Positions 32,848-56,351 of a stretch of 64,000 nt of DNA are shown piece after piece. The position numbers were made by a program, and so were the translations under genes. A model generated the notes under the pieces. It had not been told where the DNA came from, searched no databases, and worked only from the letters and a program-made list of their open reading frames with translations. Every line of letters begins with the position of its first letter. Position 1 is the first letter of the stretch. The DNA comes from Octopus vulgaris (taxonomy: Eukaryota): NCBI GenBank assembly GCA_951406725.2, contig OX597822.1:14074001-14138000 (forward strand), written 5' to 3'.

Positions 32848-33140
32848 GTATATATGTATGTGTATATATATATATGTATGTATGTATCTATATATATAAA
32901 CAAATAGATTTAAATTCAGTCTTCATGGATATGTGAATCCTAATATACGCAAGAAGTTACACTGAGGAAATTCTTGGCCAAAAAACAATGAATTTTTATG
33001 ATTTTATTATTGCTGAGAATTGAAACATTTCTACATGATTTATATTTAACTAGCTGGCTCCATGCCATAAAAAATCACGGCTAATTGTAGTATTTTATAT
33101 ACAAATACGGATAGTGAATCAAATTAATACACTTGTCAAT

Positions 33141-33303
33141 TATTTACGTTTGATGTATATTTGTCCTCATCTTGTTTGTTGTTAACACAACGTTTCGGCT
33201 GATGTACTCTCCAGCCTTCATCTTGGGGAAATTTTGAACCTGGGTTCTCCTACCTAAGGTATTTTTCGATGTTGTTATTATTATTATTACTATTACTATT
33301 ATT

Positions 33304-33346
<43 letters not shown>

Positions 33347-33414
33347 TCATTATTATTATTATTAGTATTATAATTATTATTCTGTTGATAAGTTCGATTC
33401 CAACAGTGCAGTGA

Positions 33415-33453
<39 letters not shown>

Positions 33454-33635
33454 CAATAATAATAATGATAACAACAACAACAACAACGTCAAAAAATACC
33501 TTAGGAAATAGAACCCAGGTTTGAAATTTCCTTAAGACACCTGATGAAAGCAAACAAGATGAGGACAAATATCCATCAAACGTAAATAATGTAAATAATG
33601 TACATAATTCCTCATCTCTTAAATATAGAACTGTA
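33141..33635. mobile_element. Penelope-derived tRNA-like + hammerhead element, copy 2 (foldback, deleted)
   Basis: TSD ACACTTGTCAAT/ACACCTGTCAAT (33129-33140 and 33636-33647). The minus half and plus half each retain part of the HHR; the complete terminus ...AAATATAGAACTGT is at 33634. Confidence 0.75.
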
Positions 33636-34048: not shown

Positions 34049-35882
<1,834 letters not shown>

Positions 35883-38432: not shown

Positions 38433-40003
38433 TTGGTTATAATTGTATGATATGCAAATTATTCTAAAAATTTATTTTTTTATACAAATCTTAATAATAT
38501 TCCGTTATAAAGGCGTTGAGCTGGCAGAAATGTTAGCTGTATTTCATCTGCCATTATGTTCTGAGTTCAAATTCTACTAAGGTCAGCTTTGCCTTTCAAC
38601 CTTTGGGGGGGGGGCGATTAAATACGTACCAGTTACATACTGGGGATCAATGTAATCGACTTAATCCCTTTGTCTGTCCTTGTTTATCCCCTCTTTGTTT
38701 AGCCCCCTGTGAACAATAAAGAAATAAATATTCCATTATAGAAATATATAAGGTCTTTTTACAGCATCAAATGGCTTTGAGGGCCCATCCAAGGAAAATA
38801 AGGATCAAAGGGGTTCCATAGGCAAAAAAAAAGGGTTGAGAATCATGAGTCTCAGTGAATAGTCCTCTCTTCCTCCTCCTCCACTTCTTCTCATCCTCCT
38901 GCTTCCCTTCCTCCTCCACCTCCTCTTCCCACACTACCTTACTCATGAGCTTAGCATGGAATGATGGTGCAGTATTCTTATCTTTTTAGCTAACACTGAG
39001 ATAAGTCTGAAAGGATTTTTTTTTTTAGCTTTTACAGGGCATGTTTAAAATGTCAGAAAGATGTAAAGACTCCGTTGGTTGGCATGGTGACAAAGACAAG
39101 ATATTTTGGAGAAGTGAGTGTATATAGCTAGATATTAAACTGTATACATCATCACATTTATTTGGCAGCTTGGCACCAGTACAGGAACCACCACTGTTCT
39201 TCAGCTGACAGCAGATGAAGGAAATAGACTGTGTAAAATTATTTATGCACACACACACACACACACAACACACACACACACACAACACACACATGCACAC
39301 ACATACACACGTCTGGGTGCTGAAATTTGTCTCTTCATTAGGTCAGGATGAAAGAATCATCAAAATGGTAAACCTACCCTTAAACATTAACAGTCGGCCT
39401 CCATCCTTCTACTGACACAAGGCTCCTTATACTAAAAGAGGTCATTTGAATGTAATAGCTGTACTTTATACATGCACACACACACACACACACACACACA
39501 TGTGGTATTTATACACATTTATAAACGAAGGATATATATATATATATATACATATATGAAAAACAAGAACGAAAACGCTACTTTCTTAAAATTGGGTACA
39601 TTTTAAATTTCCTTTTACATGTTTCAGTTTTTGAAAAGCCTTACCAAAAATATGTACTAAAATGGAACATGTAAAGGGAAAAGAACTTTTTATAAAATTA
39701 GATTAAAATTAAAATTAAGATTAACATTCATAGTTTATTTTCCTTGTTCCTGCAAGAACATGTAGTTCTGGTAGCATGACATGTTCAACTGACTGTGACT
39801 GCAAATTACTACTACCTGCTTTTGTAAATTGAATAGTGTGGTCAAGCCTTGTTTTCTTAGGAGTGGCAGTTGAATAATGGCCAAGACAAAAACAATAATA
39901 ATAATAATAATAATTGCTTATAGCTTCTTCTAAGTTTGTTTATAAATACTTTTCTCTCTGTTGACCAAAAAGATTTTATAAGGTATGTGATTATTGTTCT
40001 TAC

Positions 40004-42670
40004 CTGTATTCTATTGTTGTCTTTGTCACAGGTATATAGGAATCCCATGTTATCCCATGCTATACCCCAAGGGTAGCTTAGTTCTCCATCACCATGGCCT
40101 GCAGAACCGATAACAGATTGGAAACATCCATGTCTATCGAAAAGTTGAATACGATTGTTGTATCGGTCAGTTACAGCGATGTTGCCAAATTGGTTCACTG
40201 CCACATCTGCTACACAATCAAACTGACCATTTCCTTGACCATAGGATCCAAAAGAATGCAGGAAGATTCCGGTATTATCAAACACTTCAACTCGATGGTT
40301 ACTGCTGTCACAGACATATATTTCATCATCTTCACTCGCTGCTACACCCCGTGGGGATATAAACTGAGACTCTTCATTGCCATGTTCACCAAACCGTGTC
40401 CATGATCGGGATTTTGCTCTATAGTTGTTCCTTGCTTGAGTGACCAGTGTACTTGCTGACTTGCAATGCCTATGTCCTGGTCCTGGTGTTCCAGCAGAGT
40501 TATCACCATCATCATCATCAGAAGAGTCTGCAACACCATGATTATCAAACCTTGACTGGGGAATAGATCGTCTCTTTCTTGTAGACGCTGTGACAGATGC
40601 ACCATTGTCAGTCGAAGAAGAACTCTCCTCTATATCTGGATGTCTGGACTGTGAATGAGAAATTGCTTTGTGGTTCCCATGTGGAGGAGCATCTAGGATT
40701 TGGCCTCTAGGCATTTGTTCAGAGTACCCACAAAGATCTCTCCAGTTAAATGTAATCGGTAGTGTATTCTGACTATAATAGCCAGCAGGATTTCTTGGGA
40801 AACCATTATATCTGGAAGAAATATCTGATCGTGGATGCCATGTAAGAGCAGCTGGTAATATTAAATCAACTGGATTCATTTCCATATTCCTATGGGCCAA
40901 AATGGGTGAATTTGGCAAAGATCTTCGCTGCAAAGGAGCAGATGCATTGTCTTCATATAACACAAGCTCATTTGAGGCTCCATATCTATCGTAATGAGAG
41001 TTTTGTGATCCATGGGAATCCCTTGGTGGTCTCATACCCATTGGATCTCTTTCAGCTAAAAGTCTGCCTCCATCATCCTCATATTCATCATCATCATTGG
41101 AAAAAAGGCTTCTATTTTTGGCGTGAGGTGTGGAAGAATATTCTGTCCTGGTTCTATTCTTTGCTCCTCCATAAGTATCTTGCTTCTTACCATAGCGGCC
41201 TCGGTTTTCATCAGAACCTGAGGAAGTTTTTGATGAAGAAGAGTCACCTTGGTTTCTTTGAGATTCTTTTGAATACTTGGAGTCTCTTTCAAAAACATTA
41301 TCTGAGAAACTTGCTGGATCTCTGAGTGTAGAAGTTCCTGATGGTCCCAAAGCTGCATTCTGCAGAGGTGCACTGGAAGCAGTTGCACCTGCTGCGCCAT
41401 ATGCAATATCAAAAGAATTGTGAGGATTTGATGAAGCTTGAGTGGCTGCAGGTTTCGAACTTTCCTGTAACAAACTTCCACTTAAATTTGAACTCAAAGC
41501 ACTGCTGCTAGCATTATCATTTGCTGTTCTTGAAGAACCATTTCCAGATAAGCTCTGTCTTCTTGATTCATTATATTCTCTCAAGTTGGTGCCTCTTGTA
41601 GAATCTGATGGTCCAAGTATTGAATTTCGAAGATATGAGCTAGGGCTACTGTGAAGAAGTACCATTAACTCCCCAAAATGGTTAATAGCTGGACCCAGCT
41701 GACTGCCATCGGCTTGTAATGTTAGCTGACGTGCTGAAGGCAGTTCAAGAGTTGACTGATTTTGCAGCGTCGAAATGTGTTCCTGTAATTGTCTTTTTAT
41801 ATCTGGCAGATCAACGTTTGATGCTTCAATATCCTCCCTCTGTGTCAGAAGAGGTTCAGTGCTATCACAAAAGCTGGCAATGGTTGTCAGTTCCATTTCC
41901 AGATTTTCCTGGTAAGTTTGTAGAGCATTGAGTTCTGTGTAGTGGAACGTGTCAATTTCTGACAACAGGTAGTCATGCCGAGCTTTCAGTTCTCTCATAT
42001 AATTGTCGATTGTCTCAGAAACTGTATCATTCACTGAGTTGCACATGCGTTGCAGCTGCTCACGACGGTGTTCAACGGAGGTGAGGGACTCCGATACATT
42101 TGGTAGAAGGCGCCGAATGCGCTGAAGCTGTCGTGACATGTCTTGTTTTAGATTTGAGATATGGGAATGTCTGCAGGTTTCACATGTCAGTTCCGTGCAG
42201 TGGGAGCATGTGCTCAATACTGTCATCCGACCACAATCTGAGCACATAGCATGGTTACTGGGTACTCTCGGCTCAACAGGCAATGATAAAGAACTGGGTG
42301 TACTATCAACAGGAGTTGATGGCACTTGTGTTGGCTGTGGGGTCGATGAGACTACATCTGAACCAGCAGGTGCCAGGGATGGAGTGTCGAGAGAGGTGGC
42401 CGTGGATGGCTGTTGTGGAAGCTCAAGGAAACTGATGATAGTGAGGTTGTTTGGAAACCCTGAAGTACCTGCTATAGGGACCCGGTGCTCTAAACGGCAC
42501 TCGGGACATTTTATACGACGAGTGTAATAGTCGACGAGACCTTCGAGACAAGGAGACTCGCAGAACGTGTGTTGGCATGGCAGTAATTTTGGCTGACGGA
42601 ATCTGTCCAAGCAAATTGCACATCGTAGTAGCTGCTGCACCTGTTCTGCTGCATATACGAGATCAGTCAT
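40004..42670 (-). CDS. nhl-1: TRIM-NHL protein (nhl-1/abba-like E3 ligase), first coding exon: RING, B-box-like, coiled coil, disordered linker, NHL repeats 1-3
   Basis: 889 open codons. RING CAICLDRFRQPKLLPCQHTFCESPC..CPECRLEH closely resembles C. elegans NHL-1 and Drosophila Abba/Thin (from recall). Also CSDC..CSHC..CETC..H and three NHL repeats. The ORF-track tail after NNRIQ is intron read-through. A likely acceptor TTGCAG| lies at 42695, 24 nt before the ATG. Confidence 0.95.
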
Positions 42671-43813
42671 ATTGATTTGTGCAGCTTCTTAGTTCTGCAA
42701 GTTTTGCAGAAACACAATCAAAAATAATTTTTTAAAAAAAAACACAAATAAAATATTTCCTTTATTTGCTACTTTTGGTGAGATTTTTTTCCGTTTGTTA
42801 AATCACATAATTATCATTGTTTGTTTTCTGTTTTAAATATTAATTCTTTAATCTTATTTATCACCGGATTTCAAACTCAATTCCCATATTGAATTTTAAG
42901 AACTCATCCTCCTCATCATCACATCATCGTTATCATCATCTTTGTTATCACAAATAAAGATTTCTCATTTAGTTTACAAGTTCAAAAATTTCCACAAGAA
43001 AAATGAAAGGAGAATGAGATGTTGTGATATTCATGCATTTCTAAAAGCCATTGATAACATGGGTGAAGAGAAATCTTTCAATATCTCGTACATCATCATC
43101 ATTTAATATTGATTTCTGTTAATGACGCTTTCCAGACAAATATTTATGATATAATGGGTAAAATTTGGTCGAAGGACCCCCAATATATTACTGGTATTGA
43201 ATTACTTAATTCTTGACAATCTTTCTGATCTCAACATTTTCTCATTTGTTCCTCTGTGTGCTGATGTGGGTTGGATACGTTTGCAAATTCTTAACTGACT
43301 ACGTTAATTAATTAATGGCTAACTGAATCTTTGCCATGGAATAAGTTGATGATGGAAAGATTAATGACACAGATGTTAGTGATGATAATGTTGGTGTTCT
43401 TGTTGTTGCTGTTGCTGCTTATTTGATTAGGGAGACAAAAACCACAAAGTTGAGTTGGCAGGTAAGCAATCCAGCAAGTATCCCTCACATCTATGGTTCA
43501 AACCTGGGTAGCAAAAAATAGAGAAAAGAAGAAAAAAAAATCAATTGGTATTAACGAAACAAAATGGTATTTGTGCATATAAATATGTGTGTATGTGTAT
43601 GAATTTATATATGTGTCTATGTAAGCATGCTTCCTGTTAAGCAAGAATGTGAGCATGTATGTATATATATGTATACAGCTATGTATACTTGTGAATGTAT
43701 TTTTCATGCATAGATTTGTGTATGTGTGGGTGAGTATATATACATATGAGTGTGCGTGTATGTGTTTATAGCTTAAATAAATATATACATATATACATGT
43801 GTGTGTATATATA

Positions 43814-54430: not shown

Positions 54431-55685
54431 TGTTAGGAAGGGCATGGCGTTAGGAAGAGCATCCAGCTGTAGAAACTCTGCCAGATCAGATTGGAGCCTG
54501 GTGCAGCCATCTGGTTCGCCAGACCTCAGTCAAATCGTCCAACTCATGCTAACATGGAAAGTGGACGTTAAACGATGATTATGATGATATATATATATAT
54601 ATACATACGACAAGCTTCTTTCAGATTCCATCTCCCAAATCCACTCACAAGGCTTTGGTCAGCCCGAGGCTATAGTAGAAGACACTTGCCCAAGGTTCCA
54701 TGCAGTGGGACTGAACCTGGAACCATGTGGTTGGTAAGCAAGCTTCTTACCACACAGCCATACCTGCACCTATCTATTTATTTTGTTGTTTTGCAAGAGA
54801 AAAGAAGGCATAGTCATATGAATGATCTTTTACAATTCACTTATCAAGGAGCTGCCAGGAATTCCCTGTACTCTCTTCTTGTCCCTCCTTGTACCTTAAG
54901 GGCTCACTTTGACCCCTTATCACCACCATCATTATCTCTTTTACCAGCTCCATCTCAATTACTCCCACCGACTCCTCTATAATGACAGCCATGTATCACC
55001 CCTTCAGCAAACAACCGTTTCTGCCTTTTCTTTCACACTTAAACCTTTTAATACCAAGCATAAAATTGTTTTCCTCTCTTCTCCACTTTTGCTCAATCAA
55101 AGAGAGATCTTGGTTGGTTTTGCAAGTTACATGGCAACCTCACTGGTGCGGGTGCAATGGCAAAAGATCACCCATTCAATCCTCTGTGAAGTGGTTGGTG
55201 TCAAGAAGGGTACCCAGCTGCAGAAACACTGCCACAGCAGACATTGGCATGCAACACAATCTTCTCACCCAACCTATGCCAACATGGGAGATGGATGTTA
55301 AATGATGATGATGCTCAACAATATTTCTTCTGAGTCTTAACATTCAGAGCTCGATTCTTAGCTTTGCCTTTCATTCATTCAAAGTGGATAAAATCAAGTA
55401 CTAGTCAAATACTGGGGTCATTGTAATTAACTTGCCCTCTTTCCTCAAAATTGCTGGCCTTGTCTTGAAAAGAAGGGTGTCCAGCTATAAACACCATTCC
55501 AAAGAAGATATTCAAGCTCAATGCAGTCCTAGGGCACATCAGATCCTGTCAAACTGTCCAAATGATGATAATATTGATGATGATGATGATAATGACGATG
55601 GTTACTAAGACCACCTCTGCTTCTTTGATACAAACTTTCTGTTTGAAAATGGACTAAATTAAAACTAATCTTTACATTAATTTAT

Positions 55686-56230
55686 ACACTATTTACATTA
55701 TTTACATTTGACGGATATTTGCCCTCATCTTGTTTGTTGTTAACACAACGTTTCAGCTGATATACCTTCCAGCCTTCATCGGGTGTCTTGGGGAAATTTC
55801 GAACCTGGGTTCTCATTCCTGAGGTATTTTTCGATGTTATCAATATTATTCAGGTCACTGCCTGGAATCGAATTTTGAATCTGAGGGTTAGTAGACTGCG
55901 CTATTAACCCCTACGCCATTTGCCCATGGACAATTATGGAGTGAATTTTAGGGCTTATAATTCTAATATTTTCCTATCCTTCCTTAATACCAGTTCCCAT
56001 ATGCTATTCATATCTGCACTCAGTCTGCTTAGGAGGTTGTTGCGTCATAGCATATGTGCTGCTTCTTTTAGTTTTTGTATTTTCCAGTGGTGTTCTCTGT
56101 CTATTATTTTAACTTCATCGCACAGTGGGAGGTGGTCTCCATTTTTCCATACATGACCAAGATGAGGACAAATATCCATCAAATGTAAATAATGTACATA
56201 ATTCCTCATCTCTTAAATATAAAACTGTTT
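55686..56230 (-). mobile_element. Penelope-derived tRNA-like + hammerhead element, copy 3, with GIY-YIG remnant
   Basis: TSD ATTAATTTAT (55676-55685 and 56231-56240). Minus strand: GIY-YIG end, tRNA-like module (55925-55853), decayed HHR (55787-55742). The inverted complete terminus is at 56156-56228. Confidence 0.8.
55955..56155 (-). pseudogene. Penelope GIY-YIG endonuclease C-terminal fragment
   Basis: HVWKNGDHLPLCDEVKIIDREHHWKIQKLKEAAHML*RNNLLSRLSADMNSIWELVLRKDRKILEL* fits the Penelope pattern H....GH...W..VKI.D.E..W..RK.KEA.H..., with one internal stop. Confidence 0.8.
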
Positions 56231-56351
56231 ATTAATTTATGGTCCAAACATCAGTTTAATAATGACCAAGTTATTTTACTAAATCCTTTGCTATTTCTAA
56301 AATTAATCAAGATGAAGAAATACGGTAGCAAAATGGATAGGTGCTTTGGTA

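Follow-up and report, generated by a model that had tools for sequence, protein, structure and literature searches.

A Penelope-Type Retroelement Family of Octopus vulgaris with a Fixed tRNA-Derived Head, Likely an RNA Polymerase III Promoter

RESULTS AND DISCUSSION

The subject of this study is a Penelope-like element (PLE) copy at 55686-56230 of the window, a 64,000-nucleotide stretch of the Octopus vulgaris genome (assembly GCA_951406725.2, contig OX597822.1, positions 14,074,001 to 14,138,000) that corresponds to C9:14074001-14138000 in the 2.8-Gb, 227-contig assembly. The repeat unit of the family to which this copy belongs has a fixed tRNA-derived head between the stop codon of its open reading frame (ORF) and the start of the next ORF, and this head is likely the family's RNA polymerase III (Pol III) promoter. 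Directly established are the anatomy of the unit, the fixation of the head, a spike of 5' ends at the head and the absence of runs of four T's (T4). This is a real Penelope-type family whose built-in Pol III-type promoter is apparently undescribed, apart from possible annotation in Repbase or Dfam.

Anatomy of the window copy

The copy at 55686-56228 is a 5'-truncated member of the Penelope/Poseidon clade, a placement that we take from the family's domain order and the short linker between reverse transcriptase (RT) and endonuclease. Its 10-bp target site duplication (TSD) reads ATAAATTAAT at 56231-56240, as read on the minus strand, beside the inverted end, and ATAAATTAAT at 55676-55685 beside the short end. 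The inverted arm lies on the plus strand (56158-56228) and is a complete, tailed element terminus that matches 55690-55732 at 93% and 7479-7525 at 91%. All further parts are on the minus strand. The 3' remnant of the RT-GIY-YIG ORF occupies a single frame (55955-56158) with an internal TGA at 56047-56045 and a TAA stop at 55957-55955. It is followed by a 29-nt linker (55926-55954) ending in a short palindrome that spans the head's first bases and would hold both the zone in which Pol III is predicted to start (-7 to -2, counting the first base of the head as +1) and the fold-back pivot. The head itself, 74 nt long and of the type found in short interspersed elements (SINEs), extends over 55852-55925, with an A box at 55918-55908 (from position 8) and a B box at 55873-55865 (from position 53). 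Beyond an (AAT)n/(AAC)n spacer (55836-55850), whose length is highly variable among copies, come the ORF start of the next tandem unit (55788-55835; likely ATG at 55816-55814), a minimal type I hammerhead (55742-55787) comprising stem I, core, stem II, GAAA and palindromic AACGTT, and the short, tail-less terminus (55686-55741). The hammerhead agrees with the minimal ribozyme of PMC4209133.

An earlier sequence-only reading of this DNA had placed a minus-strand GIY-YIG C terminus with its stop at 55955, a tRNA-like module 29 nt farther on, and then a hammerhead, a tail, an inverted complete terminus and a TSD in the copy at 55686-56230; every one of these is present, the head running from 55925. 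An alignment of head plus downstream unit with the copy at 7548-7798 spans 251 columns and shows 84% identity. The hammerhead core reads CCGAUGA in place of CUGAUGA and G53 of the B box is altered, so the window copy is probably dead. Pfam gave no GIY-YIG match for the 37-amino-acid window peptide, nor for the 181-amino-acid C terminus of another copy (L009). The GIY-YIG identity of the window remnant, which the same reading had assigned, is thus carried by the predicted fold and the profile matches of its relatives and not by the peptide's own Pfam result.

A coding Penelope-type family

The RT domain of the family matched Pfam RVT_1 at an E value of 1.2e-9 on one copy (L016), and in the PDB the profile of alignment A1 picked up group II intron-like RTs at an E value of 6e-5 and telomerase RT at 8.5e-4. 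RT and C-terminal domain are joined in one stop-free frame of 569 amino acids. The C-terminal domain, modeled at a local confidence (pLDDT) of 66, had GIY-YIG nucleases as its top three fold matches, with middling Z scores: I-TevI (Z, 5.8; root mean square deviation, 3.0; 69 aligned positions), and EndoII and Hpy188I (Z, 4.1). Its profile also matched the Pfam-positive GIY-YIG domain of another PLE (E, 1.5e-4). A Pfam GIY-YIG match was obtained in just 1 of 15 family members, and a Foldseek search with the domain returned no match at an E value of ≤0.001 and only weak rows. On the predicted fold, then, the family's C-terminal domain is a GIY-YIG endonuclease, with weak support from Pfam and Foldseek.

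Partial tandems, in which units act as pseudo-long terminal repeats (pseudo-LTRs), were found at L064, L051, L235, L237 and L253. The hammerhead motif CUGANGA is present in 130 of 177 distinct copies and both core motifs are present in 55; stems I and II folded in two of the three copies folded, and Rfam listed neither a hammerhead nor a tRNA at an E value of ≤10. Judged by these motifs, the pseudo-LTR hammerhead is of the minimal PLE type, described in PLEs in PMC4209133. Family copies show a 30-40-nt tail at one end, an inverted 5' arm and a TSD. Of the 15 two-ended loci tested, 11 have a TSD of at least 8 bp; the rate for mismatched flanks was 1%. The sequence-only reading had noticed that one end is complete and the other 35-45 nt short. 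That difference is real, but it is the already-known 30-40-bp tail of PLE ends (PMC8557442, Fig. 2 legend; PMC11167929). Two loci, L233 and L236 (~870-900), have ORF position ~292 fused straight to the predicted cleavage site of the hammerhead, which a 4-5-nt microhomology could explain.

All family copies found are decayed and differ from one another by ~6-16%. Random sampling of 20 stretches of 10 kb (200 kb in all, on contigs C1 to C10) contained 3 insertions, which suggests ~40,000 insertions genome-wide within a rough range of 9,000-120,000. Close protein relatives in ENA/Logan are ~60-68% identical. Metagenome scans gave at first no locus and then three distant ones, and a viral scan gave one irrelevant locus. 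A search of the octopus's own genome with two foreign protein queries found no head-less sister family: 30 of 30 loci belonged to the same head-bearing family, and the second query added just a distant PLE. The genome does contain a second, young PLE family (L216 to L218; C1:27840001-27849000, C21:794501-800000 and C2:60201001-60206000) with intact frames of 775-1199 amino acids (RT plus GIY-YIG), 4.3-kb tandems and many near-identical copies, which served as a control.

The head is SINE-like and fixed in the family

In the head, the A box begins at position 8 and the B box at position 53, which is the canonical spacing; the acceptor and T stems are broken. ARAGORN at default settings called no tRNA in the window or in 14 family loci, and under relaxed settings (-ps90) it called 1 of the 30 best heads; the predicted fold of the head RNA is not tRNA-like. 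What had been read as a tRNA-like module is therefore a SINE-type A/B-box head and not a foldable tRNA, Rfam being likewise blank.

The association of this head with the coding parent, first proposed from the window copy, holds throughout the family. A head follows the ORF stop in 26 of 27 scorable loci chosen by ORF-end DNA (by BLAST, 28 of 29 ORF-end loci, two being arms of one locus). Among 39 loci chosen by RT DNA, not counting the seed, 18 extend to the end of the ORF and 17 of these have the head there; for loci chosen by a 63%-identical foreign protein the count is 19 of 20 scorable ones (5 duplicates removed from 30). Of the exceptions, L015 is broken in the linker, and L054 and L188 retain the head's first bases. 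Family sequence was found under six species labels, and contigs of two of them (E and F) span ORF, linker and head. Over ~60 nt the head shares 73% and 68% identity with those of two further SINE-like repeats of this genome, and (AAT)n comes after it. Both features would fit a SINE that inserted once, into just this Penelope copy. The fixation counts and the other species labels exclude that explanation, to which we assign a vanishingly small probability. A SINE origin of the head in the family's ancestor is likely. Family contigs across the ORF-head junction also occur in run X20, labeled an insect metagenome, where contamination is a likelier explanation than host range.

The ORF frame opens right after (AAT)n, probably at the ATG at 55816, and continues through hammerhead and tail into the ORF proper, so that the stretch from stop to next start holds little beyond head and (AAT)n. 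The head therefore lies directly upstream of the next unit's start codon, a point that the sequence-only reading lacked, and is in promoter position. The promoter of Drosophila virilis Penelope occupies the same position (PMC2377424). Linker and last codons weakly resemble an inverted head (P by shuffling, 0.005-0.06 across 5 copies and 0.02-0.28 when the core is excluded). In L022:1670-1730 and other coding copies this weak likeness looks as if a short copy, folded back on itself, had been taken up by the parent.

Most copies that reach the head begin there

Among 58 loci chosen by their 3' end alone (two seeds removed), 22 had no scorable head, 9 ended within the head, 25 stopped or folded back at the head start, and 2 ran on (L155 and L144, the latter reassigned). 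Thus 25 of 27 copies that reach the head start stop or fold back there, where chance, estimated from truncation rates elsewhere, would give ~1-3 of 27 stops per 20-nt window; the truncation rate in the ORF is ~0.002 per nt. This argues that most templates likely began at the head, as Pol III transcripts would. In a further set of head-chosen loci, biased to whole heads, 28 of 29 had neither linker nor ORF upstream. Many copies pivot on the palindrome TGCCC-AC-GGGCA, from -7 to +5, and a fold-back at -7 was the single head-side loose end among those listed for species labels D, E and F (393 reads, 80 contigs and 72 contigs). Copy ends spread from about -10 to +6 and are not at +1, many retaining 2-10 nt upstream of it. 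In the dimers L225, L231 and L242, ~290-310 nt of ORF start are followed by a restart at -6/-7. These dimers (L225:820-990, L231, L242), together with L226, join a head-to-ORF-start unit to a new head; L225 and L231 have the junction and further variants in common, which hints at a small nonautonomous subfamily.

Short and coding copies have one head sequence and one polymorphism (p-distances, 0.124, 0.138 and 0.133), with no diagnostic difference across the 75-nt head, and this likeness in head and age suggests that they come from the same source loci. In a post hoc comparison of ten sites, the B-box CpG was decayed in 16 of 84 short and 31 of 67 coding copies (Fisher P, 0.0004); for the A-box CpG, also post hoc, the difference was less clear (18 of 63 versus 34 of 73; P, 0.035). 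The sparing of the B-box CpG and the shared L225/L231 junction hint at some short source copies. The 3' ends of short copies are the two Penelope termini and not the poly-A or simple-repeat tail of long interspersed elements (LINEs). Of the functions suggested earlier for the module, a Pol III promoter and a source of SINEs are both consistent with where copies have their 5' ends.

The sense strand has no shared T4 run

When 65 RT-bearing copies are compared along the 2.6-kb sense strand, not one site has a T4 run in common, whichever of five different reference copies is used; A4 has ~30 shared sites and C4 has 8-9. The T4 runs that do occur are scattered and decay-like, 51 in 108.5 kb (0.47 per kb). 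Control frames, 17 in number and of equal T fraction (0.232), contain 66 T4 runs in 21 kb (3.1 per kb), and the longest T4-free stretch among them is 1,313 nt. The second PLE family of the genome has 14 T4 runs in 3.6 kb and no tRNA call, and two outside PLEs have 8 each. Near-terminators (five T's in six) have no shared site either. The probability of the T4 absence is 0.0003 at the control rate and 0.003 if bases are independent and identically distributed. The sequence-only reading did not pick up this feature, which suggests that Pol III may have transcribed the coding element too.

Family copies in RNA

Raw cDNA reads from one RNA data set, species label D (6% of four pooled runs), included 9,212 on the unit, with continuous cover across the junction and near-equal strands. 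They show that family copies are present in RNA and say nothing on which polymerase made it. In the same label (run X24; L023:1490-1711), a distinct ORF variant has ~12 changes, each in ~40-55% of reads; it is hardly present in labels E and F, and its base at -6 is A instead of G, a purine all the same.

Proposed mechanism and alternatives

We propose that Pol III would start 2-7 nt before the head and read (AAT)n, hammerhead and tail into the ORF start; that short templates are made by Pol III in this way is highly probable. The element's own RT would copy these short RNAs from internal tail sites back to the RNA 5' end, where the palindrome would allow the cDNA to fold back or to join a second cDNA, yielding SINE-like copies with Penelope-type inverted ends and TSDs. 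In Anolis PAc, the hammerhead is dispensable for insertion in vitro (PMC11167929). Some head-started transcripts, finding no T4 terminator over 2.6 kb, would in a second step run through the whole ORF and the next unit and provide mRNA and long templates. That coding RNA is also made by Pol III is the likeliest single account of that RNA, and we put it close to, if just under, an even chance. The step would need translation of uncapped RNA, which, speculatively, the A-rich leader might help. The fullest reading, an autonomous coding Penelope that is itself transcribed by Pol III from a captured SINE head, lacks a Pol III terminator throughout its 2.6-kb unit and makes its own SINE-like majority from that one promoter, is offered tentatively, as somewhat less than an even prospect.

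Several observations weigh against this proposal. No head-started copy spans the ORF in 20 of the 39 ORF-start matches or among 7 near-full-length copies; of those 7, L253 passes the upstream head start and one ends inside the head. L230 starts at -2 yet ends ~400 nt into the ORF. The RNA of linker and head can fold into a hairpin, a possible cause of additional RT stops that needs no Pol III. The label D cDNA shows no pile-up of read starts and near-equal strands, although such libraries poorly reveal Pol III starts. As to T4, stricter nulls give a P value of 0.03 (from 13 shared T3 sites) and of ~0.05 per element (codon shuffle; 6 T4 runs seen versus 25 expected over 16 copies, the scaling to one element being an estimate), and the result is that of one family, not of 65 independent trials. 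G4 runs are absent too (2.7-5.3 expected), TTTT is just fourth among the depleted tetramers, 3 of the 17 short control frames have no T4, and one TCTTT is shared within the ORF start.

The family could instead be an ordinary Penelope carrying its own SINE, with Pol III making short RNAs only, coding RNA coming from another Pol II promoter or host read-through, and the lack of T4 due to chance or another cause. Pol III RNA is uncapped, which counts for such an account, as do the absence of a full-length copy begun at the head and the parallel absence of G4. Long copies (L235, L237 and L253) traverse the upstream head, which supports a Pol II source and fits tandem-unit read-through by either polymerase; D. 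virilis Penelope, moreover, has a LINE-like internal promoter and an intron (PMC2377424). However, the stop-to-ATG spacer is nearly all head and (AAT)n, leaving little room for another promoter, and the T4 gap covers the whole ORF, beyond the first 400 nt that short RNAs need (P, ~0.003 at the control rate), with near-terminators likewise lacking a shared site. We regard a Pol II source of the coding RNA as a possibility of the second rank, doubtful though far from negligible.

The head could also be a passenger, ends piling up because the palindrome stalls RT or snaps back the cDNA on a long Pol II transcript. The palindrome is already in the parent, a hairpin is predicted in the RNA (24 nt, -7.9 kcal/mol; linker and head together, -22.5 kcal/mol), and no RNA start was observed in the cDNA reads. 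A stall, however, would be expected at the 3' foot of the stem, and the ends fall beyond the loop, on its 5' side; the hairpin in the cDNA, at -1.3 to -3.1 kcal/mol, is weak, the dimers restart at -6/-7, box CpGs are selectively spared in short copies, and the T4 loss is left unexplained, all of which makes a passenger head improbable. The sequence-only reading had also raised a processing signal, the head being cut by RNase P or RNase Z and working with the hammerhead. That idea is not supported, despite a 5' boundary close to the head's first base: broken acceptor and T stems and copy ends scattered off +1, many keeping 2-10 nt upstream, argue against it, as do the missing cloverleaf in the ARAGORN calls (none by default, 1 of 30 relaxed), the predicted fold and the lack of a boundary at the head's 3' end among the loose ends listed. 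We consider it very unlikely.

Comparison with known systems

The octopus family is like D. virilis Penelope and Anolis Poseidon PAc in its single RT-then-GIY-YIG ORF, its partial tandems and its minimal hammerhead overlapping the ORF start. It also shares with Penelope/Poseidon elements the 30-40-nt one-end tail, inverted 5' arms and TSDs (PMC2377424, PMC11167929, PMC8557442, PMC4209133) and regulatory DNA in the 3' untranslated region of the upstream unit (PMC2377424). It differs in that its spacer is a tRNA-derived A/B-box head, that most copies begin there and that the sense strand has no T4; in D. virilis Penelope the promoter is instead TATA-less and LINE-like, and there is a spliceosomal intron (PMC2377424). 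The Penelope/Poseidon passages and supplements searched make no mention of a tRNA module. Full-text literature searches, whose coverage leaves out most subscription papers, Repbase and Dfam, found no PLE with a tRNA-derived module; the literature consulted includes the octopus repeat surveys PMC13282606 and PMC8967140, and PMC8490949.

Parts of the design have parallels elsewhere. Schistosoma Sm-alpha/Sj-alpha elements also combine a Pol III promoter with a type I hammerhead, often in tandem, but they are noncoding and the passages of PMC6765202 describe no promoter-bearing coding parent, whereas the octopus unit is the pseudo-LTR of an autonomous PLE. TRIMp3 elements (Cassandra, Helenus and Ajax; PMC10886601) likewise have a small-RNA-derived Pol III promoter in a terminal repeat, likely from a SINE insertion, that of Helenus being tRNA-like. 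They are noncoding, nonautonomous elements with true LTRs, PBS and PPT; the octopus parent is coding, has pseudo-LTRs and bears the promoter in the autonomous element itself. Non-LTR animal retrozymes (PMC7229834; bioRxiv 10.64898/2026.07.22.740005) are short noncoding hammerhead units related to PLE pseudo-LTRs and resemble the octopus dimers L225, L231 and L242, but the passages of these two sources mention neither Pol III nor a tRNA head, and the octopus copies are mostly dispersed two-armed insertions, not tandem arrays. With tRNA-derived SINEs the short copies share an A/B-box head at the 5' end of a short noncoding retroposed unit. Classic SINEs start ~13 nt before the A box, like the predicted start here. 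Unlike them, the octopus short copies appear PLE mobilized (tails, inverted arms), not LINE mobilized, and seem not to be a separate lineage, having the same head sequence and age as coding copies. R2, too, is autonomous and has a 5' ribozyme, and its transcription is attributed to the rDNA promoter and a polymerase other than Pol II; it borrows the host Pol I promoter at a fixed site, whereas the Pol III promoter of the octopus family would be its own.

The expectation for autonomous retroelements is that they depend on Pol II, and Kojima 2024 is explicit that the autonomous partners of Pol III-driven TRIMs must use it, Pol III being weakly processive (PMC10886601). If the octopus family does otherwise, cap-independent translation and the role of the PLE hammerhead could both be studied on an mRNA of just under 3 kb that Pol III makes naturally. 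Even with short RNAs as the only Pol III products, a Penelope element would have generated, in cis, a SINE-like population of roughly tens of thousands of insertions, a tie between SINEs, Sm-alpha and retrozymes. PLE ORFs free of T4 runs offer a cheap screen for other genomes, and the sequence makes sharp predictions: a start at -7 to -2, a triphosphate end and amanitin resistance.

Other features of the window

A second copy of the family (7479-7798, plus strand) consists of an inverted complete end and then a unit beginning at the head, within a 13-bp TSD. A third (33122-33634) has two arms and the same two unequal ends as the other window copies. The claim that all three copies share one architecture is correct for the unequal ends, but in the third just the 3' portion of the head remains, within one of its arms. 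A minus-strand repeat at 54610-54770, presumably a further tRNA-type SINE-like family, is unrelated to the Penelope unit. An ~84-nt near-perfect inverted repeat at 34793-34876, which surfaced as a false microRNA match, is possibly a small miniature inverted-repeat transposable element. On the minus strand, 39860-42688 is an unbroken frame of 943 amino acids with an N-terminal RING finger and NHL repeats, a TRIM-NHL-like host gene or retrocopy.
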